A stretch of DNA of 64,000 nucleotides. Source: a virus. Lineage: Duplodnaviria; Caudoviricetes. Below are positions 1-56,040 of this stretch, piece by piece. The notes below the pieces were generated by a model. It was not told the origin of the DNA. It was given only the letters and a program-made list of their open reading frames with translations, and searched no databases. Within the stretch, counting starts at the first letter, position 1. Each line of letters opens with the position of its first letter. The DNA lies in IMG/VR virus record IMGVR_UViG_2974626280_000001, positions 1 to 64,000 of that record. One strand, given 5' to 3'. The translations under genes were made by a program, and so were the position numbers.

Positions 1-180
1 ACTTAAAAAAAATACAGTGAATTTATTTTTAGACTACCTTCTACATAATCGAAATTTGTAGTTATTTAGGTTACTACGGTTATTTAAATACAGAACAGGT
101 ACTTAGAGAATATCCGAAAAATAACCAGCGGCTAAATTCCGGTTATTATCCTTTGCGGCAATCACCTCTAGGTTATTTTC
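1..180. repeat. AT-rich non-coding element with GGTTAT/ATAACC boxes; diverged copy of 17785-17935
   Basis: GGTTA(T/C) or ATAACC boxes at 69, 78, 121, 141 and 171. ACTTAGAGAATATCCGAAAAATAAC (101-125) matches ACTTACAGAATATCCGAAAAAATAAC (17906-17931). Confidence 0.75.
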
Positions 181-286
181 GAAGTACACTAGCGATGCGC
201 ATCCAGTACACGCTTCACCTCGTTCACCACCCATCTACCCGCTCTGAGCAGTGTCCACCAGCTTGCATTTATACACCACAACGGTG

Positions 287-316
287 TTGACGCATCCACC
301 AGCAGCGGCGTATAAT
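287..316 (+). promoter_or_regulatory. Sigma70-like promoter upstream of putative terS
   Basis: TTGACG-N18-TATAAT. Confidence 0.75.
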
Positions 317-356
317 TACACCAGGCATCTTTAACCATTCACACAGGCGATTTCTC

Positions 357-839
357 ATGAGTGCATCAGGAATTCTTTTACCAGAAGATTTTGAAGACTA
401 TAACTTTGCGCTCAATAACAAAGAGCACTTTGACAAATACATTGATATGATCATTAAGGGCTACGACGAGACAACCGCACTACGTGTAGTCTTCGGCGAA
501 GAGGCTTGTTCAGACGGAGGCTTCTGGGCGCGCATTTATGCTATTCGCCGGAATCGGTACTACAATCAGCAGTACCAACTTGCACTACAGAATATCAAAC
601 TGGAAGAGCTTTGGAATCCTCGCTTAGCCATTACGATGCTGCTCTTAATCGCACGCTCCAGTGAGAAACATTCTGCGCGTATTAACGCAATCAAAGAATT
701 GAATATCATGACAGGTATTACAGTGATGGACGAGGCTGGTAACACAAAACAGGGCCGGAGCATGGAAGATTTCTACGCGAAAATCCAGGAATCAGCCGAT
801 TCGCACTACCCACCAGCAAACGGCACTACCAAGCACTAA
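357..839 (+). CDS. terS: Putative terminase small subunit
   Basis: 160 aa. The helical SARINAIKELNIMTG segment resembles TerS oligomerisation motifs, and no other TerS candidate is present in the window. Motif recognition only. Confidence 0.55.
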   Translation: MSASGILLPEDFEDYNFALNNKEHFDKYIDMIIKGYDETTALRVVFGEEACSDGGFWARIYAIRRNRYYNQQYQLALQNIKLEELWNPRLAITMLLLIARSSEKHSARINAIKELNIMTGITVMDEAGNTKQGRSMEDFYAKIQESADSHYPPANGTTKH

Positions 840-856
840 AATTACACAAGCTTTCA

Positions 857-896
857 GGGGTAGGCGCGGCGAATCCATACTAAGCTGCCCTACCCC
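857..896. terminator. Hairpin between convergent genes
   Basis: GGGGTAGG...CCTACCCC inverted repeat just after the terS stop. Confidence 0.45.
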
Positions 897-937
897 ACCA
901 GTTTCGCACTACAACCCACGAGAATGCCACCTATTGG

Positions 938-1225
938 TTATAGTACATAACGACGAATCCACACTATACCTTTCGCACTAAGGTTAAACTCTTCCACACT
1001 AGCGTCATGCCCATTATCGAAGACAACCTGACCAGTGTCCCTGCGTAACCGCCAGCAGAAGTCCATAGTGACCAGATTCGCACTATTAAGCGCAGAGCCT
1101 TTCAGCCAGCCATAGTCGCAACCCGTACTATCCGCATAAAGCTCTAACCGTCCACCAGCGTTATCGGGTTGCACTAGGACTGGCTCATTAGCCACCAGCG
1201 CGGCCACCAGCAATAGACTCTTCAT
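938..1225 (-). CDS. Hypothetical exported protein
   Basis: 95 aa, hydrophobic N-terminus MKSLLLVAALVA, one Cys pair. Confidence 0.65.
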   Translation of the reverse strand: MKSLLLVAALVANEPVLVQPDNAGGRLELYADSTGCDYGWLKGSALNSANLVTMDFCWRLRRDTGQVVFDNGHDASVEEFNLSAKGIVWIRRYVL

Positions 1226-1431
1226 CCGACAATCCGCACTATACCGCCTCGACGGGCAATCCGGTCAAAGAACGAATCGCGGAAGCTGAAGTCATCTTGC
1301 ACTACGACGACAGAGCGCTTAATCTGCTCCGCTACAACGTCCAGCTTTTGCACTACAGGCTTATTCAGGTTCAGGCCACCAGCGGCCTCAACCATCATGC
1401 GCTCATAATCTGCACTATTAAGCTCTTTCAT
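1222..1431 (-). CDS. Hypothetical protein
   Basis: 69 aa; 4-bp ATGA overlap with the downstream gene. Confidence 0.65.
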   Translation of the reverse strand: MKELNSADYERMMVEAAGGLNLNKPVVQKLDVVAEQIKRSVVVVQDDFSFRDSFFDRIARRGGIVRIVG

Positions 1432-1480
1432 AATGTTCTCCAGATGTGAGAAAAGGCCGGATAACCCGGCCCGATTTGCA

Positions 1481-2017
1481 CTACACGATTTCGAAGCGGT
1501 ACGCGACGCCTACCCAATCGAACACCGCCACTTTCGCTTCCTTAAGCTTCATGCGGAACCGGATGTGCTTGCTGTCCGGCAGGTTAAGCGCGGTAAACGC
1601 AGCTCTAACCGATTTAAACTCTTCTTCCTTATCGCCCCATTTAACGATAACGCCGTTGCGGGTCATGCGGGCTTCAAACACCTTCTCATTGCCCCAGCTC
1701 GCCTTAATCCCTTCGGAGTTCGATTTCCGCTCGCTGGTCTTCTCTTCCACCAGCTCGCTTTTAACCTTCGCTTCAAATTCTTCGTCGGTCATCGCGTCGT
1801 AATCCGGCGCTGGCTCTTCGGCCTTAACCGGGCGCGGAGAGTGGACTACTACCGGGCGGACATTATCATCTTCCCAGGCCAGCGCGTTAACCAGCGCCGT
1901 TACGCGTTTTTCGGCGGTAGCGCGGTCAGCGAACTTCTTAACCGGTTTTTCGCTATGGAGGTTGTAAAACTCCACCAGCTCCTTCGTAGAAGCGGTTGCG
2001 ACGTCGATGGTGTTCAT
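1481..2017 (-). CDS. Early hypothetical protein (178 aa)
   Basis: ATG at 2017 follows GAGG and a consensus promoter, so the ORF-track start at 2050 is probably too long. Confidence 0.8.
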   Translation of the reverse strand: MNTIDVATASTKELVEFYNLHSEKPVKKFADRATAEKRVTALVNALAWEDDNVRPVVVHSPRPVKAEEPAPDYDAMTDEEFEAKVKSELVEEKTSERKSNSEGIKASWGNEKVFEARMTRNGVIVKWGDKEEEFKSVRAAFTALNLPDSKHIRFRMKLKEAKVAVFDWVGVAYRFEIV

Positions 2018-2048
2018 AGCTAAATCCTCATTTCGTTTCGATAAATAC

Positions 2049-2077
2049 ATTATAGGTGAACCGTGTATTAAAGTAAA
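2049..2077 (-). promoter_or_regulatory. Early promoter PE1
   Basis: GCTTTACT-N17-TATAATGT. Confidence 0.85.
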
Positions 2078-2151
2078 GCACTTTCTTAAAATATTTTCGA
2101 AAAGATGGAAAGTATTTTAAGAAGCCCGGTTATCGTTACCGGGCGGAACGG

Positions 2152-2352
2152 TTAGCCGAAGAGGATAGCCTCTAAGACTTCGGCGGCGTCTTCCTTCGAT
2201 GCATGTTTAGAATCGAGGTGCCATACATATTCGCCGTAATGGCGGGTATAGATATAGACCTTTCCTTCGTCTTCGGTTTTACGAACCATCTTACCCTGTA
2301 GGCTGGAGATAGGACGCTGGTACACTTCGTTAAGGTTAAGTTTTCGAGCCAT
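2152..2352 (-). CDS. Early hypothetical protein
   Basis: 66 aa with its own promoter, GAGG RBS and a downstream hairpin (2124-2144). Confidence 0.75.
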   Translation of the reverse strand: MARKLNLNEVYQRPISSLQGKMVRKTEDEGKVYIYTRHYGEYVWHLDSKHASKEDAAEVLEAILFG

Positions 2353-2385
2353 CTTTCTATACCTCGTTTTCGTTTCGATAAGTAC

Positions 2386-2413
2386 ATTATAGATGAGCGA
2401 CGAAAAAAGTAAA
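2386..2413 (-). promoter_or_regulatory. Early promoter PE2
   Basis: GCTTTACT-N16-TATAATGT. Confidence 0.8.
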
Positions 2414-2467
2414 GCATTTTTTCGACATTTTTATTTAAATTATTTTCGAAAAAATGAGAGATTTTTC

Positions 2468-2496
2468 TTTACTTCCATCTTAGCCTATCTTATAAT
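2468..2496 (+). promoter_or_regulatory. Early promoter PE3
   Basis: TTTACT-N17-TATAATGT. Confidence 0.85.
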
Positions 2497-2550
2497 GTAT
2501 CTCATAGGGCGACGGAATAGACCGAAGCCGAAACGAACGAGGATTTAAAG

Positions 2551-2835
2551 ATGGCTAAACTAACCGCTACCGAACTCGCTAACGCGTCCGCTTTCTTCGC
2601 TGGCGAGTACGTTCCTTACGCTTCCCTACTCGCCGCTAACGTGGGCGTTAAAATCGGCGAAGAAATCCCCGCCGAAGTAGTAGGAGATTTCGGTTTCGAC
2701 GACGAAGAAGGTGCGTATCTCGATACCGTCGACGGGCGCGAAATCCGGGTTATCGAAACCGAACTTTACGTAGCCGCCGAAGACGTAGCGACCGGAGAAG
2801 TTGCCTTCTTCGCCCTCGAAGAAATCGAAGAATAA
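2551..2835 (+). CDS. Very acidic early protein (candidate DNA mimic or anti-defence protein)
   Basis: 94 aa, 22 D/E versus 4 K/R; GAGG RBS and own promoter. Confidence 0.8.
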   Translation: MAKLTATELANASAFFAGEYVPYASLLAANVGVKIGEEIPAEVVGDFGFDDEEGAYLDTVDGREIRVIETELYVAAEDVATGEVAFFALEEIEE

Positions 2836-2873
2836 AAAGATGTAAATATTTCGGATAAAGTGAGAAATAAAGC

Positions 2874-2902
2874 TTTACTAGTCGGACACTTTATCCTATA
2901 AT
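2874..2902 (+). promoter_or_regulatory. Early promoter PE4
   Basis: GCTTTACT-N17-TATAATGT. Confidence 0.85.
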
Positions 2903-2960
2903 GTTTATATCGGAAGGGGAAATGAACCTCTTCTACCTAACCTAAAACGAGGACTTAAAA

Positions 2961-3227
2961 ATGACTAACATGACTAAAGAAATTATCGCTATCCTGATGG
3001 CTTCTAAAACTAACGAAGGTGTTGCGTTCTCCGAAATTACCGGCCATGTCCGCCTCGTCGTCGATAACACCGAAACGTCCGAAGTTGCGAGCCTCATCGT
3101 TACCGGCTTCGTTCCTAACCTCGACGACGATATGGACGACGAATTAGCTCCGGTATGGTTACATAAATATTCTTTCGGATGGATGCTCGGACTCGATAAC
3201 GGCGACCAGTACGCTATCCTTAACTAA
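2961..3227 (+). CDS. Acidic early hypothetical protein
   Basis: 88 aa with DDDMDDE tract; GAGG RBS. Confidence 0.8.
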   Translation: MTNMTKEIIAILMASKTNEGVAFSEITGHVRLVVDNTETSEVASLIVTGFVPNLDDDMDDELAPVWLHKYSFGWMLGLDNGDQYAILN

Positions 3228-3246
3228 AAATACACAGCCTTACATT

Positions 3247-3270
3247 AGCCTCGCTTATAGCGGGGCTTTC
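3247..3270 (+). terminator. Intrinsic terminator
   Basis: AGCCTCGC-TTATA-GCGGGGCT followed by TT. Confidence 0.6.
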
Positions 3271-3386
3271 GTCGTTCTATCCCCTTCCTCCGCTATACCC
3301 TCTCTTAGAAAGTGTTCCCTTGGTTAATGTTGTTATGTCGAATAATAACGCTCGTTAATTATATCTTCGCCGCGCTGTCGCGTCCG

Positions 3387-3592
3387 GTATAGTTAGGACG
3401 GAGATAGTTTGAGGGTTAATGGTATGGGAGCTAATTGTTACGGTCGGTGATGGTTAGCTGACGAATGATTATGCTGCGTATTGTATGTTGCGTAATTGTT
3501 AGGGCGCGAATGATTACGGTGCGTGATGGTTTGCTGACTAATCATTAGCCTTCTAATTACAAGCGAAATAATGGTTAGTGCGCTAATCATTG
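3387..3592. repeat. Non-coding tandem array, 14 units of 15-16 bp
   Basis: 9-bp cores (consensus TAATNRTTA) start at 3387, 3402, 3417, 3432, 3448, 3463, 3478, 3493, 3508, 3524, 3539, 3554, 3569 and 3584, separated by 6-7 bp mostly GC-rich linkers. Confidence 0.9.
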
Positions 3593-3683
3593 AGTGTGCC
3601 CTTGACCGCGATTTAGTACCTGGTCCAATTTCACAGTACACTAATCAGAATTCCATCACGTAGGCGCGGCCAAGAACAATCAA

Positions 3684-41028: not shown

Positions 41029-41652
41029 TCAGGCGTGGTCGTGCAGACCGTGCGCGGCGGTTGAGCTATTAAGGCCCAGCTCTTCAACAATCCGCTCATA
41101 GTTCGCGTCATCGGACTTGACAAAGATGCCGTTATACATGACGCCTTTGCGGTCTTTGATTTCCAAATAAGCATGCTCGACGCAATCTTCAACGCGCAGG
41201 CCGTACTCATTACAAATCAGCTGTAGACCGTAAATCATAAGCCCGATAGCAGCGTAAGCATCATCAGGGTTATTCTTCTTAATCGCGTCAGCCAACCGAC
41301 CCTGGCCCATGCCCGCAATCAATAACCCGTGGTGCGGCACCTGAGTGAAAACCGCGAAGCTTTGCGAGCCGTAGATGGTCTTAATATCCAGCCCCATTTG
41401 CGCTGAAACATTGACCAGGACCACAAAGGAGTCGCCGATGGCGTCTTTAAGAGACGTCACAATCAGCTTTTTACGCTGATGAGTGTCGCTGCCGTGATAC
41501 GTCCAGATTTCGTAAATGGCGGTTGAAATCTCGTTAGAGAACTCACTCACCAGCTTGACGAATTGGTCTGCGGCCTTGCCGCCGCCGATAATGTTGCGGG
41601 CTTTAGACCATTCCAGAATCAGATTGAACAGCACGAAAATTTGTGGAGTCAT
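41029..41652 (-). CDS. MazG-like NTP pyrophosphohydrolase
   Basis: WSKARNI...QFVKLVSE...KDAIGD...AYLEIKDRKG pattern. Confidence 0.75.
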   Translation of the reverse strand: MTPQIFVLFNLILEWSKARNIIGGGKAADQFVKLVSEFSNEISTAIYEIWTYHGSDTHQRKKLIVTSLKDAIGDSFVVLVNVSAQMGLDIKTIYGSQSFAVFTQVPHHGLLIAGMGQGRLADAIKKNNPDDAYAAIGLMIYGLQLICNEYGLRVEDCVEHAYLEIKDRKGVMYNGIFVKSDDANYERIVEELGLNSSTAAHGLHDHA

Positions 41653-45535: not shown

Positions 45536-45939
45536 AACTTCTCCAAATAGCTTACTATCGGCTCTTTGCCGATAATTAATGTGGCCATAGACAATAACTC
45601 GTCTTTGGTCATTGAGTCCAGAGGGTGCGACGGATTTAATAATATAAAGTCGTTTGCGACCCGAATCAATACGAATGCGTGACCTTTCCAGTCGCGGCAT
45701 TGTCTGGCGAATCCGAGTTGGCCGCGCTCGAATTTACCGCGCAAAGGAAGAGTAGAGGCCCGTTTGGGCCAATCCTCCAGGTACTTGTTTTCGAGCCAGA
45801 ACATAGTGCCGTTGCGGTTTTGCCCGATGGTGTCGGGCATCGCTTCAGCTATGCTGTTCTCAATCCTCTTCAGGATCAGTTTCCGGCCCGCTGCTTTCTT
45901 CATCGGTTCGTACGTCTTCTTTTGTTCTGTCGTCGGCAT
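45532..45939 (-). CDS. PD-(D/E)xK nuclease (RecU/VRR-NUC-like)
   Basis: RIEN...MPD...FWLENK motif. Confidence 0.7.
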   Translation of the reverse strand: MPTTEQKKTYEPMKKAAGRKLILKRIENSIAEAMPDTIGQNRNGTMFWLENKYLEDWPKRASTLPLRGKFERGQLGFARQCRDWKGHAFVLIRVANDFILLNPSHPLDSMTKDELLSMATLIIGKEPIVSYLEKL

Positions 45940-48871
45940 GGCTTAGCACCCTTATGTTGTTGATAAAGAACATATCCAGACCGGAGAGTTTGAGCGCATT
46001 CATCATCACCCAAGAGCCTTTTGGCACGTTCTCTGCAATGTTACGACCCAGCCTTTCATAGTCCTGCTCTTTGATACGGAAGCGCATCGGCGAATCGCTC
46101 GAATCGTCAACGCACATAATATCGATGAACGCGGTTGGCCCTTCAATCCGTCCATCAGGTAAGTGATTCTTTTTAAGCACTTCTATGCCGCGCCTGTTAT
46201 CCCAGCGGGTGATACCCTTTTCCAGACGCTTTTTGATGCGAATCGGTTCGTTTTGGTCTGCAACGATTTTCTTAGTTATCTTGCCGATTACCAAGCCAAC
46301 TTCGCCGTCTTTAACGTCGCGCATATTCTCAGGCAGCACTTCTTTGGTACGCATCAGCGGCTTGCCATAATCCCACATCGGCTTACCATTACTGTCTTTA
46401 CGCTGCACCTTGATTAAAGTAGGCTTCTCATAGAGATGGCCGAACCGGGTGTGGGCCTCGTTAAGGTCGTTATACAGAACCTCTGCTTTCATCAGGCGGT
46501 CTTTATCGGCCTGAGTCAATACGCCGCGATTACGCTTATCGACGTACATGGCAGCCTTAGCAGGGCCATAACCTTTGGCGTTCATGATACCGCCTACCAG
46601 ACGACCGTCAGACGAAATGGTCCAGTTCATTTCGCTGTGATCAGGGTCAAGCGCGGTATAGTTAATTCCCTCTTTAGCCAGTTCACGAAGAATCGCAATG
46701 GTTTGCGTCTCATCTTTCGCTGCACGTAAACAGGCTGCGGCAAACTGTAGAGGGAAATAGCGCTTCAGGTAACAGGTCCAGTAGGTGATGATAGCGTATG
46801 ATACGGAGTGAGACTTGTTAAAGCCCCATGAACCGAATGTAACCATCTCACGCCAAATCTTTTCAGCCTGGTCCTTTGGTACGCCAGACTCAACCGCGCC
46901 GCGCACGAAGTCTTCACCCTGTTGGTTGAAGTATTCCTCACCTTTACGACCAGACATCGCCTTACGAACCGCAGAAGTCTTAACCCAGTCAAAGAGGCCA
47001 ATCTCTTTAACCACGGCCATGATCTGTTCCTGGTACAGGAATACACCGAATGTTTCGTCAAGATACGCCTTCAGCTGCGGCACGTCATAGACAACCTCTT
47101 CATCGCCTTTAGAGCGTGCGATATACTTCTGAGCCATACCGGATGCGAGCGGGCCGGGCCGCGCAAGTGCTGTCAGGTTATCGATTTTACTGAAGCGGTC
47201 GATATTAACGAAGCGGGCAACAGAGCGGACGGCGTCGCCCTCAAACTGGAAAATCCCTGACATCTTGTCCTCGTTCAGGACATCTAAAACGCTTTGATCA
47301 TCAAGGGTTAGCGAGTAGAGTTGTTCGATAGTTACCGCTCCAGTGTCGCCAATTATTCCAAGCGTACGCAGCCCAAGGGCATCGATTTTCAACAGGTCGA
47401 GATACTCGGAATCAGGCTTATCTATCTGAGCAATACCTTCCGCCGTAACGGTGCAATAATCTGATATCGGGTCATTACAGACGAGAATACCAGCAGCGTG
47501 AACGCCAGTGTGAGAAGGGTGAATCTCAAGGTCGCCCATGCAACGCGCGGCTTCAGGATATTGCTCAGAGAAGAGCTTGCCCGGTGTGGTCGTCGTCATT
47601 GTATCGTGCAGTCCTTTACCGTAACGCGCATCACCGGATGAATATTCAATCAGGGCGTTTTTGACGCTGTCTACAGCACCATAAGGAAGGCGAAAGCGCT
47701 TACTGACTACCGCCATCACGGAGTTAGCCTTGAGCGTGTTGATGTTACCCAGCTTTACGACGTTCTCTTTACCATACTTTTCTTGCAGGTAGTCGAACAC
47801 CATATAGCGTTTGGTATCCTCAAAGTCAATATCGATATCGGGTAAATCGGCGCGGCTGATATCGATAAAGCGCTGGAAAAGCAGCTTATGGGGCAGCGGG
47901 TCTACTTCGGTAATCTCCATGCAGTAGCACACCAGAGAGCCAGCAGACGAGCCGCGAGCGGGTCCAACGAGCATATGCTTTTTAGCGAACTTAACAAGGT
48001 CGGCAACCACCAGGAAGTAAGAATCAAATTTCTTGTTTTGAATCTGCTTGATTTCTTCCTGGAAACGGGCTTCATACTCCGGCGTCCACTCTTTGATGTG
48101 ACCCGCCTTTAAGCGGTACTCCATCCCCTCACGCGCCAGCGCTACCATATCACCATCGAGGTGAATAATTGGAGCCTTATTAAGAGCGCGGCCAGCAAGT
48201 GTTTCTGCCAGTCGAGTGGTTACGCCAATGGCGTCACAAAGCTCTTCATCGGTTGCAATACCTACCAAAGCAGATGTGTAGTCCTGCGCATCTTCAATAG
48301 TGCGCATACCTACAGATTCACGCGTTTCGAAAGCATAAGCAAAGTCTTTCTGCTCTTCTTTTGGAAGGTCGTTATATCCGGTGATGACCATTGGTTGCCC
48401 GGTTTCCCGGTGGGCCAATACGCCACGACGAGCGTGGAGCAACGACGACGGGTTGACGTCGATATAGTCGTACTGGTCAGGAGCCAGGAGAGCCAGCGCC
48501 CCGCCAGAGAATCGCACAACCCCTTCCAGCGCTCCGAACTCTTCAGGAGTCAGGCCGCCGTTCTGCACCGCTTTGGTGGTCGCGTTATAGAACTTGCGCA
48601 GGTCGTCTGCGAGAATCCAGGCCTTTGGACGGAAGCCAAGTCCCTGTAGACGCTCGTCGTCTACCTTGATTTGAATTTCCATCCCGAAGATGGGTTTTAT
48701 ATCGGCAGCCTTGCAGGCCTTTTCCCAGCGAACGTGACCCCAAGTATTGTTATCGACCATCGCGGCAATGGGGCAATTCAACTCTTTCAGCCGCGCAATG
48801 ATTTCGCCAGTACGGCCATAAACCTCTTTAAAGGTGTACGCGCTTCTTACGCGCAACTGAGGAAATGTCAT
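45860..48871 (-). CDS. dnaE: DNA polymerase III alpha-like (family C)
   Basis: GPARGSSAGSLVCY, LPDIDIDF, LLKIDALGL, VFLYQEQ and GFNKSH motifs. Confidence 0.95.
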   Translation of the reverse strand: MTFPQLRVRSAYTFKEVYGRTGEIIARLKELNCPIAAMVDNNTWGHVRWEKACKAADIKPIFGMEIQIKVDDERLQGLGFRPKAWILADDLRKFYNATTKAVQNGGLTPEEFGALEGVVRFSGGALALLAPDQYDYIDVNPSSLLHARRGVLAHRETGQPMVITGYNDLPKEEQKDFAYAFETRESVGMRTIEDAQDYTSALVGIATDEELCDAIGVTTRLAETLAGRALNKAPIIHLDGDMVALAREGMEYRLKAGHIKEWTPEYEARFQEEIKQIQNKKFDSYFLVVADLVKFAKKHMLVGPARGSSAGSLVCYCMEITEVDPLPHKLLFQRFIDISRADLPDIDIDFEDTKRYMVFDYLQEKYGKENVVKLGNINTLKANSVMAVVSKRFRLPYGAVDSVKNALIEYSSGDARYGKGLHDTMTTTTPGKLFSEQYPEAARCMGDLEIHPSHTGVHAAGILVCNDPISDYCTVTAEGIAQIDKPDSEYLDLLKIDALGLRTLGIIGDTGAVTIEQLYSLTLDDQSVLDVLNEDKMSGIFQFEGDAVRSVARFVNIDRFSKIDNLTALARPGPLASGMAQKYIARSKGDEEVVYDVPQLKAYLDETFGVFLYQEQIMAVVKEIGLFDWVKTSAVRKAMSGRKGEEYFNQQGEDFVRGAVESGVPKDQAEKIWREMVTFGSWGFNKSHSVSYAIITYWTCYLKRYFPLQFAAACLRAAKDETQTIAILRELAKEGINYTALDPDHSEMNWTISSDGRLVGGIMNAKGYGPAKAAMYVDKRNRGVLTQADKDRLMKAEVLYNDLNEAHTRFGHLYEKPTLIKVQRKDSNGKPMWDYGKPLMRTKEVLPENMRDVKDGEVGLVIGKITKKIVADQNEPIRIKKRLEKGITRWDNRRGIEVLKKNHLPDGRIEGPTAFIDIMCVDDSSDSPMRFRIKEQDYERLGRNIAENVPKGSWVMMNALKLSGLDMFFINNIRVLSHADDRTKEDVRTDEESSGPETDPEED

Positions 48872-48872
48872 G

Positions 48873-49415
48873 TTAATCTCCGAATATGTCGTAAACGCCT
48901 TGTGTCTGGCAAATTTTATGAAGCATCATGATATCGTCCAATGCCCTGTGCTTCTGAGTATACTTGCCTATAAACAATTCGTAAAGCTCTTGCAGCTTCA
49001 TCCTTCGACCGAATTGGGGATAGAATTGCTCAACGGTACATATTTGGATTTTAGGGAACTTCATGTCATCCAGCGTCAGGCCGATTCGACGCGCGGCATA
49101 GTCGATAATGTTTTTATCGAACGACATGTTGTGAGCAATAATGGCTTGGCCGCGACTGATGAAATCGGCTATCTGCTCATGCTGCTCTGCAAAGGTCTTG
49201 TTGACCTCAAGGTCTTCATTCGTCAACCCGGTGAGCTTTGTGATGATTTCTTCGATGATGATTTCAGGGTTGATAATCAATTCGAGGGTGTCGATGATTT
49301 CCTTTCCATCGGTAATGATTCCCGCGAATTCAATAGGGCGCGGCTGCAGGCCAAGCGGTGCCTGATGGTGAACGGTCAGGCCAGTGGTTTCGGTATCGAA
49401 TACGGTAAACAGCAT
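48873..49415 (-). CDS. dnaQ: DEDDh 3'-5' exonuclease (epsilon-like)
   Basis: DTETTG, AHNMSFD and HRALDD motifs. Confidence 0.88.
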   Translation of the reverse strand: MLFTVFDTETTGLTVHHQAPLGLQPRPIEFAGIITDGKEIIDTLELIINPEIIIEEIITKLTGLTNEDLEVNKTFAEQHEQIADFISRGQAIIAHNMSFDKNIIDYAARRIGLTLDDMKFPKIQICTVEQFYPQFGRRMKLQELYELFIGKYTQKHRALDDIMMLHKICQTQGVYDIFGD

Positions 49416-49470: not shown

Positions 49471-50016
49471 TCAACCCTTTGCTGCTGTCACGGTTGGCTC
49501 AACATACGGCGTGTAATTGGTATTCAGGCGGACGATGAACTTGAGGTCAACGCCAAGCAGGTCGTAAGTGTCAAAGATTACGTAGTTGTAACGGCGCTCG
49601 TCTTTGATGGCTTCGTTGGTGTGGGTCTGCGTCATAACTTCTTGCGCAATCGCCACGCCTTTAGACGCGAAGTAAGCCCGGTAAGACAGCAACTCGTCAT
49701 TGGTGACGTGCATACCAAGGTGGCTTACACAATGCGGACGGTTCTCCAGCCAGTTGTTGCCTTTGGTGTAGTTAAGCACCTCCAGCTCCAGCGGCTTACC
49801 AGCTTCGACATCAGAGCCGCTGCCAGCCTGATAGTTGAAGTTCAGCTCTGCAATGTTAGTGCCGTTGGAGCCGTTAATCGCGCCAGTGGCGGTGACGACG
49901 TCCGTCACCCAACTGGTCAGGCCCAGGTCGCGTAGGATTTCAATGGCGACGTCGCTGTCAGGAGCGTTGAGAGCAATCTGCTGGATTTCGAATTTTTTCA
50001 CTTTAATCTTTTCCAT
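49471..50016 (-). CDS. VOC/glyoxalase-fold protein
   Basis: IQQIALNA, LELEVLNY, VSHLGMHV and DLKFI strands; start MEKIK after AAGGTG. Confidence 0.65.
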   Translation of the reverse strand: MEKIKVKKFEIQQIALNAPDSDVAIEILRDLGLTSWVTDVVTATGAINGSNGTNIAELNFNYQAGSGSDVEAGKPLELEVLNYTKGNNWLENRPHCVSHLGMHVTNDELLSYRAYFASKGVAIAQEVMTQTHTNEAIKDERRYNYVIFDTYDLLGVDLKFIVRLNTNYTPYVEPTVTAAKG

Positions 50017-50026
50017 TTTATTCACC

Positions 50027-50152
50027 TTAAATCTTGCAAGCGTCGCCGCAATCGTTATCGTCAGCGGACTCTTCAAATTCAACTTCTTTACGATTGTTGA
50101 CGCGCTCTACAGCTTCGTCAACGCCAGGGATTTCAAAATCGTCTTCGCCCAT
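50027..50152 (-). CDS. 41-aa acidic dithiol peptide resembling the ribonucleotide reductase R1 C-terminal tail (absent from ORF track)
   Basis: Manual translation MGEDDFEIPGVDEAVERVNNRKEVEFEESADDNDCGDACKI; AAGGT RBS; fills the SDR-VOC gap. Confidence 0.8.
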   Translation of the reverse strand: MGEDDFEIPGVDEAVERVNNRKEVEFEESADDNDCGDACKI

Positions 50153-50160
50153 AGTTTACC

Positions 50161-50838
50161 TTATTTACCGAAGGGGATGTCAGTACCAGACATGTACTTA
50201 TAGCTGCCTGATTCGATGAGGTGGCCGATGAATTCCGCGATGGACTCCGGCGGCGTTTCCAGACCGTGCATCAGAGCCTTGCGTTGGTACTCCGCAGCAA
50301 ACTCTGGCGTCCAGCCGCGAACCTTGCAGACGTTCTCTTCAATCTGCTTGGACATGCCAGTACCAGCCAGCTTGTTAGGGCTGATAGAGAACACCGTGAT
50401 GCCGTGCTTAGGCGTCAGTTCATGCGCCATCTGCTTAGTGATCATCAGACCCGCTGCTTTAGACGCGTTGTAAGCCAGGCTGGACGTCATAGGGATGTGC
50501 GCAGCGTTTGAAACGATGTTGATAACGAAGCCTTTCGACGCAATGAGTTGCGGCAGAACCGCCTGAGTCATAGCGACGAAAGAAAATGCGTTAACGTGCA
50601 TCACATGGTCGAACTGCTCAACACTTACTTCTTCAAACCACTCGTTGCGGTTGATACCGGCACAGTTGATCAGACCGTCGACTTTGTCGAGTTCACTTAC
50701 CCACTTTGGCGGGTCTTGAACAGTCTGGTTAGGAGCAACGTTGCGGTCAAATTCGATAACCTGAATTCCGTTGAACTCCAGGACAGAAGCGATTTCACGA
50801 CCTAAACCAGAAGAAGAGCCTGTTACGATAACTTTCAT
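50161..50838 (-). CDS. Classical short-chain dehydrogenase/reductase
   Basis: TGSSSGLG, NCAG and YNASK motifs. Confidence 0.9.
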   Translation of the reverse strand: MKVIVTGSSSGLGREIASVLEFNGIQVIEFDRNVAPNQTVQDPPKWVSELDKVDGLINCAGINRNEWFEEVSVEQFDHVMHVNAFSFVAMTQAVLPQLIASKGFVINIVSNAAHIPMTSSLAYNASKAAGLMITKQMAHELTPKHGITVFSISPNKLAGTGMSKQIEENVCKVRGWTPEFAAEYQRKALMHGLETPPESIAEFIGHLIESGSYKYMSGTDIPFGK

Positions 50839-50900: not shown

Positions 50901-52001
50901 TTATTTGATTTTGATAGTGTGCGTATTAATCAGCGGCTCCAGCATCGCTGCATACACGGTTAAATCCAGAATCGAGTCCTGATGAGTCAGACCGCTGTTG
51001 GTGAAGCGCGTCAACTTAACAATAAGCAGCTCGAAGAGGTGCCACATGTTATAGTCTTCCTGCGTCTTCAACTCAACGCCATTCGGAAACAGCGCGGCCA
51101 TCACCTTACCGACGACCAGCGCGTTGTCTTTATAGACGGCGTTACGCTCACGGAACGTTGCGGCGGCTTCTTCCAGCACGTCAGCCGCGATACGGCCTGA
51201 CTTGTATTGGGCGCGAAGAGCATCGAGCGTGTCAACAGGTTGAGTTCGCTCCAGCTTCTCCGGGACTTCCACCGGGCGCACCGCCGCGCGGGTGTAGTAG
51301 TCGCCCAACTCGACGGCGCTGCAAGGGTATGCCAGAGTTGAGTCATCTGTTTCCTTCAACAGCGCCGCAATTAGAGGGTTAGTGGCGCAGCGCATTGTGG
51401 TGTGCGGCTTGAAGACGAAGTCGTGGCGTCCTTTGAATCTGACAGGGAACGCACTATCAACCTCTTGAGATTCGCCTTTGCGAATTTTCGCAATAATGTG
51501 CTCGTTGCCGCCAGCAATGACCATCTTTTTGGTCACCAGCCAAGGCTCAATAATAGCAGCATCAAATTCACGGTACATCTTAATAACGTCAGGGTGATCA
51601 TCGAATGCGATGATGTGCTCATACTCATGGCCAGGCATCAAAAGGAACTTTTCCAGCATCTGGCGCTTCAGCGTCGCACTTGGCACGCCGTCTTCGTGAT
51701 CAGCTCGCATAGCCAGAACTTTGTACTGGTCATCGGAAATACCGATAACATGATTCAACTGGTATTTGGTCACGCCAAAAATCCTCTGCGGCCTTGCGGT
51801 AAAAAAGGCGATATCCATGCCAGCCGCTAAGGCGTAGGCGACGAGGTGAGAGCCGATTGGCAGCGCCGTATCTTTAGCCATCTGCTCTTCAGAATGATAC
51901 GCGTCAAAGTTCCGATTAGCCCAGTCGATGAGCGGTACACGGTGGGAATCGTCGATAGTGCAGCCGTCAAGGTCAAAGATAGCCAGTGTTCTGTTAGTCA
52001 T
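50901..52001 (-). CDS. HAD phosphatase fused to a DUF6378-like all-alpha domain
   Basis: FDLDGCT, FTAR and FDDHPD motifs; C-terminal LEEAAATFRERNAVY...KLTRF...DSILDLTVYAAML. Confidence 0.75.
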   Translation of the reverse strand: MTNRTLAIFDLDGCTIDDSHRVPLIDWANRNFDAYHSEEQMAKDTALPIGSHLVAYALAAGMDIAFFTARPQRIFGVTKYQLNHVIGISDDQYKVLAMRADHEDGVPSATLKRQMLEKFLLMPGHEYEHIIAFDDHPDVIKMYREFDAAIIEPWLVTKKMVIAGGNEHIIAKIRKGESQEVDSAFPVRFKGRHDFVFKPHTTMRCATNPLIAALLKETDDSTLAYPCSAVELGDYYTRAAVRPVEVPEKLERTQPVDTLDALRAQYKSGRIAADVLEEAAATFRERNAVYKDNALVVGKVMAALFPNGVELKTQEDYNMWHLFELLIVKLTRFTNSGLTHQDSILDLTVYAAMLEPLINTHTIKIK

Positions 52002-52288
52002 TCTACACGCCCTATTGATTTAGAATATTGATAGTAAAAGTCAATCTTATTTAACTTTGCCATAATCTTATCTTCATTAGGCTCAAAGTTAAAGCCGAAT
52101 TTATCAGTCAGCAACGAAAGTACAGCAAACAAGTCTTGCACTTCATTTTGCAGACGTTCACGATTCGGCGGCGTGCTGTCGTTCATACGCTCATCAAGGC
52201 CGAAGCGGTCGCACTTGGAGCATTCCTGGGCTATCTCAGCACACTCTTCAGCAAGTAGCCCAAGAAGGAATTGATCACGTGTTTTCAT
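51998..52288 (-). CDS. MazG-like nucleotide pyrophosphohydrolase
   Basis: LAEECAEIAQ...NEVQDL (EExxE...ExxD). Confidence 0.75.
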   Translation of the reverse strand: MKTRDQFLLGLLAEECAEIAQECSKCDRFGLDERMNDSTPPNRERLQNEVQDLFAVLSLLTDKFGFNFEPNEDKIMAKLNKIDFYYQYSKSIGRVE

Positions 52289-53121
52289 CAGCCGCTCGAC
52301 TTGCCATTGTTGGCTACCGGGTTATTGGTCTGAACTTCAATATTCCAGAAGTCCTGTTTAAGTTTTGCTTTCTCCGCTTCCAGGTCCATCCACGGACGCC
52401 AGAAGGGGCAATGAGCCTTACCGTGGCGAGGGAAAGCGCACTGGCCAGTGGCTACGCAAGCGACTTGAAGCAGCGGCTCAGCCCACCAATGGACTTCGAG
52501 AATCAAGCGGCGCATCTCACGGAAAACCTCTTGGTACTCTCCTTGTGTACGCGTACAGAGGCGAGTCTTGGCGGTCTCAGAGAGCGTGCGCAGGTTGAAC
52601 TTCGCCTGAATACGTGTCGACATGTTAGACGGCATGATACCACGAGCGTCTTGCAGTTCGGCCCCTGCCGCGATAAGCTCGGCATACAGCGCGTCAATGG
52701 TCGCCATGCCATCGTCCCATAGTTCGGCACGATTTTGCTTGGCGCGAAGATTGTTGATTCGCTCCTCATCATTGGAGCTAAAAACATCCACTGTTTGATC
52801 AGGATTAAGGTGCTCAAACGCTTTCGGACGAACCGCATCAAACGCTGAAATTTCAAGTGCGCGGCTGGTTTCCTGCTGATAAGCTCCGGTGCGCGTTCTC
52901 ACCAATTGGTGAGTAAAGTTCTTGCTCACTCCAGAGATATCAAAAACGTAATCGACGAATTCAAACGGCGACTTGATGGTGTCCAGCATATACTTAAAGT
53001 GGTCTGCCTTCTCCTGCTCAGTCATAGTCTTTGGGTCAGCGCCGCGCATACGTGCGGACTTAGTACCCAGCAAAAGCTCCAGCGCGTTAGGAGTAACGCT
53101 AATAAGTTCAACTTTCATCAT
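52288..53121 (-). CDS. thyX: Divergent flavin-dependent thymidylate synthase (ThyX) homolog
   Basis: SPFEF, GVSKNFTHQLVRTR, QDARGIMP, NLRTL and RLCTRTQGE motifs, with non-canonical active-site residues. Confidence 0.8.
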   Translation of the reverse strand: MMKVELISVTPNALELLLGTKSARMRGADPKTMTEQEKADHFKYMLDTIKSPFEFVDYVFDISGVSKNFTHQLVRTRTGAYQQETSRALEISAFDAVRPKAFEHLNPDQTVDVFSSNDEERINNLRAKQNRAELWDDGMATIDALYAELIAAGAELQDARGIMPSNMSTRIQAKFNLRTLSETAKTRLCTRTQGEYQEVFREMRRLILEVHWWAEPLLQVACVATGQCAFPRHGKAHCPFWRPWMDLEAEKAKLKQDFWNIEVQTNNPVANNGKSSG

Positions 53122-53534
53122 TTGAAGTCCACAATGTCGTATTCAGAAGTCAGGCCGCAAGTATAGATTTTCGACCCATATTTAGTCACTACCTGGGAAC
53201 CGTCGCCAAGAACGATTACCAATAATTCTGCGCTCTTGCGCGTCTCAGGATGGAAGAAGGCATCACGATTCCCTTCCAACTTAATTGGCGCGGCGTCTTC
53301 GATTACAATTTGCTGGCCGGACGGTAAGATGACCCGGAAATCAGCGCCACCGTAGCCAGCAGGCGTGGCCGCAAGCGTCATCTGGTGGTTAAGGTCGGCA
53401 CTGGCACAGGCGTAGTCCCAGCTCTTGTTTACGGCGCGTACCTGGGCGTCAGCGCCCGGTGCGAAGAAGCCGAAGAGGAAAGCGGCCAGAAGCAGCAGTC
53501 CATACCAACGTTCGCCTTTAAGTAAGTTTTTCAT
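53118..53534 (-). CDS. Hypothetical exported protein
   Basis: 138 aa; signal peptide and Cys pair; own promoter. Confidence 0.75.
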   Translation of the reverse strand: MKNLLKGERWYGLLLLAAFLFGFFAPGADAQVRAVNKSWDYACASADLNHQMTLAATPAGYGGADFRVILPSGQQIVIEDAAPIKLEGNRDAFFHPETRKSAELLVIVLGDGSQVVTKYGSKIYTCGLTSEYDIVDFK

Positions 53535-53598: not shown

Positions 53599-53976
53599 TT
53601 ACCACTCTTCACGACCGGTGACGATGCACGGAATAAGCTTGCTACCATCGACGACGATAGACGCAGTATTGTTGCGCATATCCTTCTTGGTGATTCCGAT
53701 GCTTACTACATGGTTGCCGTTGAAAGCGCTCTGCATGACGTAAACTTCACCGTCAGCATTAATGCCACGGCGCGTTCCGCCATTGGTTGGGTAGTTAACG
53801 CCGTTGTAATCGATAGCGTTTAAGATACCCTGCGGAGTGCGCGATTGCGAGTACAGGAGAGGTTTGCCGCCGCAAATCATACGGAAGTAAACAGCGCTTG
53901 ACTCAGCATGAACGGCTACGGGGCAAAGGGTTGAGGCGGCGACGATAGCGGCTGCTGCAATAATAAAACGTTTCAT
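53599..53976 (-). CDS. Hypothetical exported protein
   Basis: Start MKRFIIAAAA; signal peptide; Cys pair. Confidence 0.75.
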   Translation of the reverse strand: MKRFIIAAAAIVAASTLCPVAVHAESSAVYFRMICGGKPLLYSQSRTPQGILNAIDYNGVNYPTNGGTRRGINADGEVYVMQSAFNGNHVVSIGITKKDMRNNTASIVVDGSKLIPCIVTGREEW

Positions 53977-54012
53977 TTTTAATTCCTTCAATTGTTTTGT
54001 TTCGATAGAATG

Positions 54013-54041
54013 ATTATCGCTCATCCTTGAGCGTACGTCAA
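54013..54041 (-). promoter_or_regulatory. Promoter with palindromic spacer
   Basis: TTGACG-N17-GATAAT; 22 bp identical to 53561-53582. Confidence 0.8.
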
Positions 54042-54047
54042 GCACTT

Positions 54048-55010
54048 TTATTTAAAATTTTTGAGACGTTGATAATTAGTCGCGTGGATAAGGTTATCGA
54101 CCTTTAAAACGTCGTCGGCTACGTCGTCCAGTAACAGGTTTCGCCATGTAGCGAAGCGACCGATAGAGAAGACGCGGAATTGAGACGTCAACTCATAGAG
54201 TACCGCCTGTCGCAAGTCCTGCGGCATGTCGACAATCTTACCATAGCGCTGATCAACGACTTCGGCAGACGCGATGTCGACCTGAGTTGGGTGCAGACCG
54301 AACTTGCCAGCTATGTACGCCAGCTCGATATCCGTATCCATATAACTGCCGCCGTTCTCTATCATTTCGACAATCATAGTGTCGCCAGTGATAGAGGCGC
54401 GATAGGTCTTAAGGTCTTCGGCAGGGAAATAGATTGTTTGGTAAATGTCGCATGGAACATTCACCTTGAAGCGGTGAACGCTGATGCTCTGACGGGCGAA
54501 CGCGAAAGGGATTTGCTCATCGTGTTCGAGGTTGGTAATCTTCATCATCACCTGCATAGGGATAGTGCTGATGATTGAAGGGCGGTTATCGAGGTTGAAA
54601 TTGAAAGCCTCATCAATCGGAGTCTCAAATAAGATTCGGTCCTCACCAACCTCTTCAATGAGTCGGTCATAGAAGTCGTCAGGCGCAATGTAGCGCGTCG
54701 CCGTCTCCAGCTTCATGATGCTGCGGCCAGAGAGCTGCCCTGTTACCTTCAGCGAGTACATGTTGGCAAGGTTGAGCGGGCAAGTGCCCTGATGCATCTG
54801 GTTGCCGTAAACAACGGCCTTATCCACGCGTACGGCGCGGAAAGGAATTCCGGTCAGCTTTGATACCTCTTCGCCGCGAAAACGCAGGAGAGCGCGGTGC
54901 TGTGGCATTCTTGGGCCTGCTTCATACACGGGCGCTTTCTTGAAGTGGCAAGCGGTGATAAGGCCAGCAAGTCCTGCCCCGGCGATTACGATTGATTTGG
55001 TCAGGTTCAT
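54048..55010 (-). CDS. FAD-dependent oxidoreductase, UDP-galactopyranose-mutase/amine-oxidase-like
   Basis: N-terminal GAGLAG...VYE dinucleotide fold; C-terminal SIGRFATWR motif. Confidence 0.7.
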   Translation of the reverse strand: MNLTKSIVIAGAGLAGLITACHFKKAPVYEAGPRMPQHRALLRFRGEEVSKLTGIPFRAVRVDKAVVYGNQMHQGTCPLNLANMYSLKVTGQLSGRSIMKLETATRYIAPDDFYDRLIEEVGEDRILFETPIDEAFNFNLDNRPSIISTIPMQVMMKITNLEHDEQIPFAFARQSISVHRFKVNVPCDIYQTIYFPAEDLKTYRASITGDTMIVEMIENGGSYMDTDIELAYIAGKFGLHPTQVDIASAEVVDQRYGKIVDMPQDLRQAVLYELTSQFRVFSIGRFATWRNLLLDDVADDVLKVDNLIHATNYQRLKNFK

Positions 55011-55152: not shown

Positions 55153-56040
55153 TCAGTCGTTATCGAAGCGCTGAACGGATTCGTCATCTTCAAAAGTGTC
55201 GGCGTCACCGTCTTCAACTTCTGGCTGCCCGGTCTGATCAACGGTGTGGAACACCAGGTGACCCATCTCTTCCAGCTTGCTCAGGTAAGAGCGGACGCTT
55301 GCGCCGTACAGCAGGCCTTTCACTTCTTCGCCGAACTCGTCGATGTTGATCAGTGTGCCATCGCTGTATTTTTCACGAATCACCGCCAGCACTTTGCCGC
55401 GCGTTGAGTGCTCCTGCGGGTTCGACAGACCTTCGCCGGTATACTGGAAGTGGGTCGATTTGGTACGGCGGCCACCTTCAGCTTTCTTAGCAGCTTTACG
55501 CTCTTCCAGGATGGCACGGCGCTCTTCGGCTTCCTGCTTACGCGCAGCCTTATCGGCTTCGGCCTGCTGACGTTTCGCTTCACGCTCAGCATCACGCTCA
55601 GCTTTGCGGTCCGCTTTAGCCTGATCACGTTCAGCCTTTTTAGCAGCTTTCGCTTCTTCACGCGCCTTAGCACGCTCTTCAGCCTGCTCAGCTTTAGCAG
55701 CTTCGCGCTCAGCTTTCTTGGCTTCTTTCTCTTCTTCACGCTGCTTAGCGCGTTCAGCTTTAGCGGCTTCACGCTCTTCAGCTTTAGCAGCTGCTTTAGC
55801 TTCGCGCTCTTTGGCTTTCTCTTCAGCCTGAGCTGCGCGCTTCTCTTCCTTCTCCTGCGCCTTAGCAGCGCGGGCATCGGCCTGTTCCTGACGCTTGGCT
55901 TCGCGCTTGGCTTCAGCTTCTTTACGCGCTGCTTCACGCGCTTCAGCCTTTTCCTGGCGCTCTGCTTCACGCTTAGCGCGGCGCTCCGCTGCTTCAGCGG
56001 CTTTCTGTTCTTTCGATTTAACCTGGATTGGTTCGCTCAT
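55153..56040 (-). CDS. Charged single-alpha-helix protein with a C-terminal winged-helix-like domain
   Basis: About 175 aa of A/E/K/R repeats, then STRGKVLAVIREK...SVRSYLSKLEEMGHL. Confidence 0.75.
   Translation of the reverse strand: MSEPIQVKSKEQKAAEAAERRAKREAERQEKAEAREAARKEAEAKREAKRQEQADARAAKAQEKEEKRAAQAEEKAKEREAKAAAKAEEREAAKAERAKQREEEKEAKKAEREAAKAEQAEERAKAREEAKAAKKAERDQAKADRKAERDAEREAKRQQAEADKAARKQEAEERRAILEERKAAKKAEGGRRTKSTHFQYTGEGLSNPQEHSTRGKVLAVIREKYSDGTLINIDEFGEEVKGLLYGASVRSYLSKLEEMGHLVFHTVDQTGQPEVEDGDADTFEDDESVQRFDND

Follow-up and report, generated by a model that had tools for sequence, protein, structure and literature searches.

A 64,000-nucleotide stretch of Caudoviricetes DNA (positions 1 to 64,000 of the IMG/VR virus record IMGVR_UViG_2974626280_000001; hereafter, the window) carries a gene for a ThyX-like flavoprotein that public records all annotate as a thymidylate synthase (TS). 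The encoded protein belongs to the Thy1 superfamily and departs from the ThyX equivalog in three defining respects, which are the profile cut-off, the signature motif, and the conserved histidine His53. Next to it in many phages is a flavin adenine dinucleotide (FAD) protein whose predicted fold resembles that of UDP-galactopyranose mutase (UGM). Both proteins belong to a four-part cassette that is the best available candidate for producing the modified thymidine of Pbunavirus DNA. The two genes and the principal features of the ThyX-like gene are as follows.

52288..53121, minus strand: ThyX-like flavoprotein, an intact open reading frame (ORF) of 277 amino acids
52957..52980, minus strand: motif TIKSPFEF, residues 48-55, with Ile49 in place of His53 (translation checked)
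52858..52911, minus strand: motif HQLVRTRTGAYQQETSRA, residues 71-88, an altered ThyX signature (translation checked)
52291..52464, minus strand: C-terminal extension, residues 220-277 (~55 residues), absent from solved ThyX structures
54048..55010, minus strand: UGM-like FAD protein of 320 amino acids, phrog_4828 (PHROG match 2.5e-107, function unknown)

The ThyX-like protein matches the Thy1 family (PF02511) with 95.5 bits, against a Pfam cut-off of 24.8, and is placed in the ThyX/Thy1 superfamily by both score and fold. With TIGR02170, the NCBI equivalog model for thyX, it scores 73.4 bits, below the cut-off of 87.9. An AlphaFold (AF2) model of the protein has a predicted local distance difference test (pLDDT) score of 78, and its top matches in a structure search (Foldseek, VIA) are all ThyX-family chains. 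The best VIA match is T. maritima ThyX 1o27 (Z 13.9, root-mean-square deviation (rmsd) 7.4 Å, 189 aligned), and the next unrelated chain scores Z 4.7. The structural match is confined to the core, residues 1-226, which forms the Thy1 fold; no PDB match to the model extends beyond about residue 226.

Residue equivalences were taken from a HMMER alignment to T. maritima ThyX chains (chain numbering minus a 12-residue tag), and the register is the same in a profile alignment to Thermus ThyX 6j61. The changed positions (query=T. maritima) are I49=H53, F55=H59, H71=R74, T76=H79, A80=S83, Q82=N85, Q83=E86, T85=S88, S86=G89, A88=Y91, C189=D176, and R191=H178. Those retained are Q72=Q75, R75=R78, R77=R80, Y81=Y84, R87=R90, R160=R147, N176=N163, R178=R165, and R187=R174. 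An earlier inspection of the letters alone (the sequence-only reading) had proposed that TIKSPFEF stands where ThyX has (G/K)HxSxxEH, with Ile replacing His53, and this is borne out by translation and by the HMMER and profile alignments. It had also proposed that His, Ser88, and Tyr91 of the signature are replaced by Thr, Thr, and Ala, with which the HMMER alignment agrees: where ThyX has RHRxxSxxxxSxR(Y), the query reads RTRTGAYQQETSRA, so that Thr replaces His (His79), Ala replaces the first Ser, Thr replaces the second Ser (Ser88), and Ala replaces Tyr (Tyr91). The longer motif HQLVRTRTGAYQQETSRA keeps R75, R77, and R87, and has His in place of Arg74.

Residues expected to contact the nucleotide and the flavin are largely kept. 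R87, R160, and R187 (R90, R147, and R174 in T. maritima) and Q72 (Gln75), which bind and activate dUMP (deoxyuridine monophosphate), are invariant. R187 corresponds to the uracil-binding residue, and R87 and R160 to phosphate- or base-binding ones; the fourth phosphate contact, Arg74, is His71 in the query. Judged by the alignment, the FAD residues R75, R77, N176, and R178 (R78, R80, N163, and R165) are also conserved. The earlier observation that the dUMP- and FAD-binding Arg residues are retained is thus confirmed by the alignment and by their invariance in 20 homologues, and its corollary, that nucleotide and flavin binding persist, is upheld as far as residues and a modelled ThyX fold can indicate.

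All of the substitutions are invariant in the 20 homologues, which are 55-81% identical to the query. A larger alignment consists of the query and 150 representatives clustered at 50% identity from 1,562 hits. In these 151 sequences the His53 column contains I, L, or V in 142 cases, the Tyr91 column contains V, F, T, A, or I, and His fills the Arg74 column in 129. Replacement of Ser88 by Thr is a conservative change, and in most relatives Ser is still present at this position. An alignment and a structure model had been named by the sequence-only reading as checks on its proposal, and they show replacements throughout the clade together with a ThyX fold. Because the replacements are fixed across relatives, the gene is not decayed; it represents a branch of the ThyX family that is deep and under selection.

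Ser88 and Tyr91 have been called "strictly conserved" and critical in ThyX, and the conserved His53 stacks against the pterin of folate (PMC8316439, PMC11940539). In reduced ThyX, the flavin is the stacking partner of His53, whose position is fixed by hydrogen bonds with Tyr91 and Asn85, and the His53-Tyr91-Asn85 gate and Ser88/Tyr91 affect the rate by 100- to 1000-fold (PMC8316439, PMC11940539). All three partners of the His53-Tyr91-Asn85 network are replaced in the query.

The C-terminal extension carries Cys222, Cys228, and Cys238, and ends in a conserved tail, NPVAxxGKS. A fourth cysteine, Cys189 (52555-52557), lies in the core, two residues past the uracil-binding Arg. All four are invariant in the 20 homologues, and over the 151 aligned sequences they follow an all-or-none pattern, with 82 sequences having the complete set, roughly 50 full-length sequences having none, and few being partial. 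This pattern suggests a four-ligand metal site, putatively for Zn or an Fe-S cluster. Four-Cys and Cys-less forms are both found beside the UGM-like partner, and the literature that we searched contains no mention of a metal site of this kind in ThyX.

The UGM-like protein was recognized through its structure. A Pfam/NCBIfam scan assigned it to no family at E <= 0.01, UGM included, and a PDB profile search picked up nothing beyond the dinucleotide motif at the N terminus of amine oxidases. The AF2 model (pLDDT 82) has the UGM fold with its FAD Rossmann domain, and its best structural matches are UDP-galactopyranose mutases (4dsg: Z 20.4, rmsd 3.7 Å, 307 aligned), of which 17 entries head the match list, followed by protoporphyrinogen oxidases (Z 18) and monoamine oxidases (Z 16). 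"UGM-like" is therefore a statement about the modelled fold and not a family assignment. UGM forms a flavin-N5-sugar adduct, which parallels the flavin-N5 carbinolamine of ThyX.

ThyX-like proteins occur in 523 records of the phage collection and UGM-like proteins in 360. In the following Gram-negative phage groups, by host genus, the counts of the two are equal or nearly so.

Pseudomonas phages: ThyX-like 292, UGM-like 292
Serratia phages: ThyX-like 9, UGM-like 9
Xanthomonas phages: ThyX-like 6, UGM-like 6
Escherichia phages: ThyX-like 29, UGM-like 27
Rhizobium phages: ThyX-like 10, UGM-like 8

Distant ThyX-like genes, in Gordonia, Microbacterium, Mycobacterium, and Clostridium phages and in archaeal viruses, have no UGM-like gene. 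The pair is adjacent in 9 of eleven sampled contexts, and the loci examined include this window, Wifcevirus SP13, Pbunavirus SN, F8, and 14-1, Rhizobium phage RHph_TM40, and five metagenomic contig families. The two exceptions to pairing are a Gordonia phage, whose His53 site has Leu, and a contig in which the ThyX-like protein retains both His and Tyr. The pair is present in the 207-kb genome of RHph_TM40 and in a metagenomic phage with a different terminase and portal. In most sampled contexts a HAD_PNKP gene and a DUF6378-like gene are located beside it, and we refer to the UGM-like flavoprotein, the ThyX-like protein, the HAD_PNKP phosphatase, and the DUF6378 domain together as the cassette.

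Three homologues (P0160, P0168, and P0223) contain an intein after the RxR...S.R motif. Inteins usually occupy functionally critical sites. The fusion partners of longer homologues are inteins or N-terminal regions without a Pfam match, and give no functional clue.

The minus-strand gene order in the window is a Dda-like helicase, a Lys/Glu/Ala-rich protein, the UGM-like protein, two small proteins, and the ThyX-like protein, followed by the genes listed below.

51998..52288, minus strand: MazG-like protein of 96 amino acids (phrog_4856, NTP pyrophosphohydrolase, 1.3e-22; Pfam MazG match weak, below cut-off)
50901..52001, minus strand: HAD_PNKP-type phosphatase fused to a DUF6378-like domain (phrog_4889, 2.3e-56)
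50161..50838, minus strand: short-chain dehydrogenase/reductase (SDR) of 225 amino acids (Pfam adh_short, 2.9e-37)
49471..50082, minus strand: VOC/glyoxalase-like protein (no Pfam hit; true start likely near residue 23)
48873-49415, minus strand: DnaQ-like exonuclease (PHROG match)
45860-48871, minus strand: DnaE-like polymerase (PHROG match)

The start of the MazG-like gene overlaps the ThyX-like stop (TGATG), and the start of the HAD_PNKP-DUF6378 gene overlaps the MazG-like stop (ATGA). Stop/start overlaps of this type, indicative of translational coupling, join the 138-amino-acid gene that precedes the ThyX-like gene, the ThyX-like gene itself, and these next two genes. The HAD_PNKP part is N-terminal (about residues 7-147), with a Pfam match of 9e-6 that is just under the cut-off. 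The DUF6378-like part (about residues 265-362) is an all-alpha domain with a feature score of 0.94 and a TM score of 0.78 to DUF6378 clusters, values that provide a lead only. Both halves recur beside ThyX-like genes elsewhere. The 96-amino-acid MazG-like gene has no match in the 13 other loci compared, including those of Wifcevirus SP13 and Pbunavirus SN, and the protein has no detectable relationship to the DUF6378-like domain.

The SDR is 65% identical to the product of an SP13 gene in the same position, and is present in the enterobacterial clade (this phage, Wifcevirus, and the Serratia MTx group) and not in the cassettes of SN, F8, and 14-1. The VOC-like protein, which scores 0.92-0.96 with TM 0.72-0.80 to VOC/Glyoxalase_4 clusters (again a lead only), is 51% identical to its SP13 neighbour; like the SDR, it is confined to the enterobacterial clade and absent from Pbunavirus. 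This restriction hints at a chemically different adduct in that clade, if any modification exists there. The order of DnaQ and DnaE downstream of the cassette is the same in SN, F8, 14-1, SP13, and contig L018. These genes follow directly, and the cassette belongs to the replication module.

The complete phage record is 73,168 bp long and has an exact direct terminal repeat of 3,603 bp (window 1-3603 = genome 69566-73168), leaving a unique length of 69,565 bp. The phage is part of a PB1-like assemblage whose nearest records include Pantoea phage PA1 (78% protein identity), Wifcevirus, Serratia Myosmarvirus, Burkholderia WTB, Xanthomonas XcP1, and about 290 Pseudomonas Pbunavirus genomes. A search of the complete 73-kb record for ThyA (PF00303) gave no match, and the phage thus has no ThyA-family dUMP hydroxymethylase.

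Several other genes around the cassette are described for completeness. Between the UGM-like and ThyX-like genes, at 53118-53534 and 53599-54045 (minus strand), are two small proteins of 138 and 148 amino acids with hydrophobic N termini that by eye resemble signal peptides, and with no family match; Pbunavirus has five tiny unrelated ORFs in this position. The gene at 55153-56040 (minus strand) encodes 295 amino acids, of which ~190 form a low-complexity region rich in Lys, Glu, Ala, and Arg that is followed by a conserved C-terminal domain (phrog_4765), and this protein is conserved upstream of the UGM-like gene in Pbunavirus and Wifcevirus. A larger MazG-like pyrophosphatase (41029-41652, minus strand; 207 amino acids, phrog_1992) adjoins the DNA ligase, so the phage has two MazG-like genes.

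Virion DNA of the Pbunavirus phages F8 and 14-1 contains new nucleosides, of 362 Da in F8 and 390 Da in 14-1, that replace about a quarter of T (PMC12191111). They were described in this 2025 preprint as sugar-alcohol and cyclised-pentose derivatives of thymidine, with no genes assigned; the authors regard the genus as being without known modification genes (PMC12191111). DNA of both phages resists enzymes with TG in their sites, and the modification is confined to TG dinucleotides (PMC12191111). Both masses can be reached by C-linked products (deoxyuridine (dU) 228 + pentose 150 + 2H - H2O = 362; dU 228 + hexose 180 - H2O = 390) and by O-linked ones (5-hydroxymethyldeoxyuridine (hmdU) 258 + tetritol 122 - 18 = 362; hmdU 258 + pentose 150 - 18 = 390). 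Since both sums give 362 and 390, the masses do not separate the two routes. In the literature searched, no paper ties the ThyX-like gene or other cassette genes to modification.

We propose, as a tentative reading that we nevertheless regard as quite possible, that the ThyX-like protein and its cassette supply the entry step, at the level of the nucleotide, for a thymidine hypermodification like that of Pbunavirus. The ThyX-like protein would be a functional flavoenzyme of a distinct viral ThyX branch that binds FAD together with a mononucleotide of uracil or thymine, and in which the part of the active site used by canonical ThyX for stacking folate or NADPH (the reduced form of nicotinamide adenine dinucleotide phosphate), and for finishing reductive methylation, has been remodelled. 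It might work with the UGM-like, HAD_PNKP, and DUF6378 proteins, and in this clade also with the MazG-like, SDR, and VOC-like enzymes, and its product would carry at uracil C5 something other than, or besides, a plain methyl group. On this proposal the cassette would make the modification, the donor would not be methylene-tetrahydrofolate (CH2-THF), and the DNA of this phage would itself be modified.

One specific form of this proposal, which we consider unlikely as stated, is that the flavin N5 captures a sugar-derived aldehyde or an activated sugar instead of the folate methylene and transfers it to C5 of dUMP. Free formaldehyde is known to react with the flavin N5 of ThyX, and the resulting carbinolamine alkylates dUMP in the absence of folate (PMC8316439). 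Candidate donors are ribose-5-phosphate and a hexose phosphate, which the UGM-like partner might prepare, and transfer to dUMP might occur with or without a final flavin reduction. C-C-linked polyol or C-glycosyl deoxyuridylates would result, and could then be trimmed by the HAD phosphatase. The sequence-only reading had suggested aldehyde or sugar donors, an idea that fits both the sugar-type modified thymidine of relatives and the co-inheritance with the UGM-like gene, and its more general notion of a donor other than folate gains real support from the present data.

A number of findings weigh against the proposed entry step, and some of them favour its main rival. The confinement to TG requires a step that reads sequence at the DNA level, for which a mononucleotide enzyme alone is insufficient, and no protein of this type was identified in the cassette. 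The O-linked sums given above are a further difficulty, as is the comparison of F8 with 14-1: the ThyX-like proteins are 93.8% identical, the UGM-like proteins 97.3%, and the HAD-DUF6378 proteins 80.8% (with differences mostly in the linker), gene order is identical, and nothing in the cassette accounts for the 28-Da difference between adducts. Relatives in Gordonia, Microbacterium, and Mycobacterium phages that have no UGM-like partner have also lost His53 and Tyr91, so these losses are older than the cassette and not linked with it. A donor other than CH2-THF, as first suggested, agrees with the clade-wide replacement of residues, but the N-terminal loop equivalent to the folate-gating loop is conserved (T20, K21, R24, and G27 are invariant in the 20 homologues), and the H53A mutant of T. 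maritima ThyX was crystallised with folate bound (PDB 4GTF), so loss of His53 is not in itself loss of folate binding. We found no phage deoxynucleoside monophosphate (dNMP) kinase, and also no dUTPase or dCMP deaminase, in this phage; any modified dNMP would therefore depend on host kinases. Finally, the ThyX-like gene is the only TS-like gene in this phage, SN, SP13, and RHph_TM40, and in RHph_TM40 it lies ~3 kb from dUTPase and ribonucleotide reductase genes, a context typical of a true synthase of dTMP (deoxythymidine monophosphate). Being the sole TS-like gene in these four cassette-bearing genomes, it keeps plain dTMP synthesis a live reading, and the earlier suggestion that the product may not be dTMP is weakened to that extent. 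As a plain dTMP synthase (dUMP + CH2-THF -> dTMP) with a divergent active site, which on balance we think rather unlikely, the protein would have the UGM-like protein as a dedicated reductase or an unrelated neighbour, and the four-Cys site would be structural or serve as an electron entry replacing the NADPH site. Such an enzyme would explain why the dUMP-activating Arg residues are all kept, would be compatible with the folate bound in 4GTF, would suit the absent dNMP kinase by making a product accepted by host Tmk, and is what every public annotation states. However, canonical Ser88, Tyr91, and His53 mutants are badly impaired and this whole triad is replaced here, the protein scores below the thyX equivalog cut-off, and dTMP synthesis does not need co-inherited UGM-like, phosphatase, and DUF6378 genes. 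The literature searched contains no assay of this branch, and the characterised L5/D29 gp48 is canonical.

Two further explanations keep the ThyX fold at the centre of a modification pathway. CH2-THF might still be the donor, without reduction, and the exocyclic methylene might be trapped either by water, which would give 5-hydroxymethyl-dUMP, or by a hydroxyl of a sugar or polyol, analogous to trapping by glycine in MnmEG, to yield O-linked 5-(alkoxymethyl)-dU precursors. The lost Tyr91, Ser88, and His53 serve carbinolamine consumption and flavin positioning rather than dUMP binding, the observed masses equal hmdU plus tetritol or pentose less water, and the genome has no ThyA-type dUMP hydroxymethylase, points that speak for this explanation; the exocyclic-methylene analogy has been discussed by Weigele and co-workers (PMC8989533). 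Yet the cassette yielded no recognisable 5-HMUDK-type kinase or glycosyltransferase, in a search that was not exhaustive, about 75% of T is canonical and would need a second route, and TG specificity is left unexplained, and we consider this explanation distinctly improbable. Far less probable still is that the ThyX-like protein acts on DNA, by oxidation or in another way, at T or U in a TG context, or serves a DNA-modifying complex as a nucleotide-binding subunit with no catalytic role. The TG specificity of the reported modification would then be accounted for, the conserved extra C-terminal domain has a four-Cys site and basic residues, and Arg74, a 5'-phosphate contact, is His in most of the aligned sequences (129/151). 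A non-catalytic role is contrary to the invariant catalytic Arg, however, and Pfam/NCBIfam scans detect no DNA-binding domain. The nucleotide pocket of ThyX is buried at the tetramer interface, and we know of no ThyX-fold enzyme that acts on polynucleotides, both of which also speak against action on DNA.

Two further observations were made. F8 ORF070 (L015 13894-15090) and 14-1 ORF70 (L016 13997-15301) encode proteins of 398 and 434 amino acids with 57% identity, the most divergent proteins in the 16-kb region compared, with neighbours that are 91-99% identical. This divergence could relate to the differing END-nuclease sensitivity or adducts of F8 and 14-1. Separately, TG/CA is strongly depleted in ~2 kb of the terminal repeat of the present phage (window 1601-3600; copy at genome 71166-73165), where observed/expected values are 0.18-0.57 per 400 bp, compared with a genome median of 1.07 (z = -5.6). 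No other dinucleotide pair is such an outlier there, with CG observed/expected reaching up to 1.7-1.9, and the TG/CA-poor stretch ends at the inner edge of the repeat. We considered this depletion as a footprint of TG-specific modification and rejected the idea, because F8 has no such region (minimum observed/expected 0.74).

The ThyX-like gene is labelled "thymidylate synthase" in several hundred phage genomes, among them the Pbunavirus phages most used for Pseudomonas therapy, despite its departures at the defining residues. If our proposal of an entry step for hypermodification is true, the genes behind a DNA modification on which sensitivity to restriction enzymes and END nucleases depends would be identified, the ThyX fold would for the first time be seen to use a donor that is not a one-carbon unit, and the four-part cassette would be a simple genomic marker predicting modified DNA in many uncultured phages. 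Should a sugar be the donor, enzymes would have a new way of making C5-alkylated pyrimidines, and the biosynthetic origin of Pbunavirus-type hypermodified thymidine would be at hand. If the protein instead makes plain dTMP, the catalytic residues called "strictly conserved" in ThyX would need re-evaluation, which matters for the design of ThyX-targeted antibiotics.

We compared the ThyX-like protein with canonical ThyX, or flavin-dependent thymidylate synthase (EC 2.1.1.148), represented by T. maritima TM0449 and the enzymes of M. tuberculosis, PBCV-1, and mycobacteriophages L5 and D29 (gp48). They share the fold, the dUMP-activating and phosphate-binding Arg residues, the flavin contacts R78, R80, N163, and R165, and a similar core size. 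The query differs from them in replacing His53, His79, Ser83, Asn85, Glu86, Ser88, Gly89, Tyr91, Arg74, and His178, in having a Cys-bearing C-terminal extension, and in its linkage to a UGM-like gene. L5 gp48, considered as a possible characterised member of this branch, was rejected because, unlike the query, it has the canonical motifs GHESVFEH and RHRHLSFSVVSQRY, and it therefore offers no functional precedent. The partner protein shares with UGM (Glf) the fold and the GxGxxG FAD motif, but identity is 12-17%, its 320 amino acids compare with 365-510, and protoporphyrinogen and amine oxidases are just 2-4 Z units behind.

PolB, a UMP/dUMP C5-methylase of polyoxin biosynthesis (PDB 4p5a/4p5b), illustrates how a ThyX-fold enzyme with a changed range of substrates can be recruited to a secondary pathway. 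Its structural match to the ThyX-like model reaches VIA Z 10.8-11.2, and its profile match is weak by sequence (E 0.006). PolB has no UGM-like partner and, unlike the function proposed here, keeps folate-dependent methylation. Hypermodification through 5-hmdU in SP10, PhiW-14, ViI, and M6 (PMC8989533) is similar to the modification of relatives of this phage in that a bulky, partial C5-thymidine substitution blocks nucleases. Those pathways differ in starting with a ThyA-type dUMP hydroxymethylase and in using a 5-hmdU DNA kinase; neither such a kinase nor downstream transferases were found in general PHROG and Pfam scans of the cassette genes, which did not include a dedicated search.

Phage dUMP and dCMP hydroxymethylases of the ThyA family, and the 5-hydroxy-dCMP synthase of RB69 and DLP3, are TS homologues that have changed cofactor or donor and furnish the starting nucleotide for a pathway to glycosylated pyrimidines, as is proposed here. 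The ThyA homologue of RB69/DLP3 has swapped folate for flavin and makes 5-hydroxy-dCMP for arabinosylation (PMC13326640). By analogy, it is the closest conceptual precedent for our proposal, although ThyA-family enzymes have a fold unrelated to Thy1 and their products are demonstrated, whereas that of the query is only proposed. The present window contributes an enterobacterial-type member with three extra enzymes (MazG-like, SDR, and VOC-like), the all-or-none pattern of four cysteines, the findings against the proposal set out above, and the occurrence of the cassette in phages with unrelated backbones.

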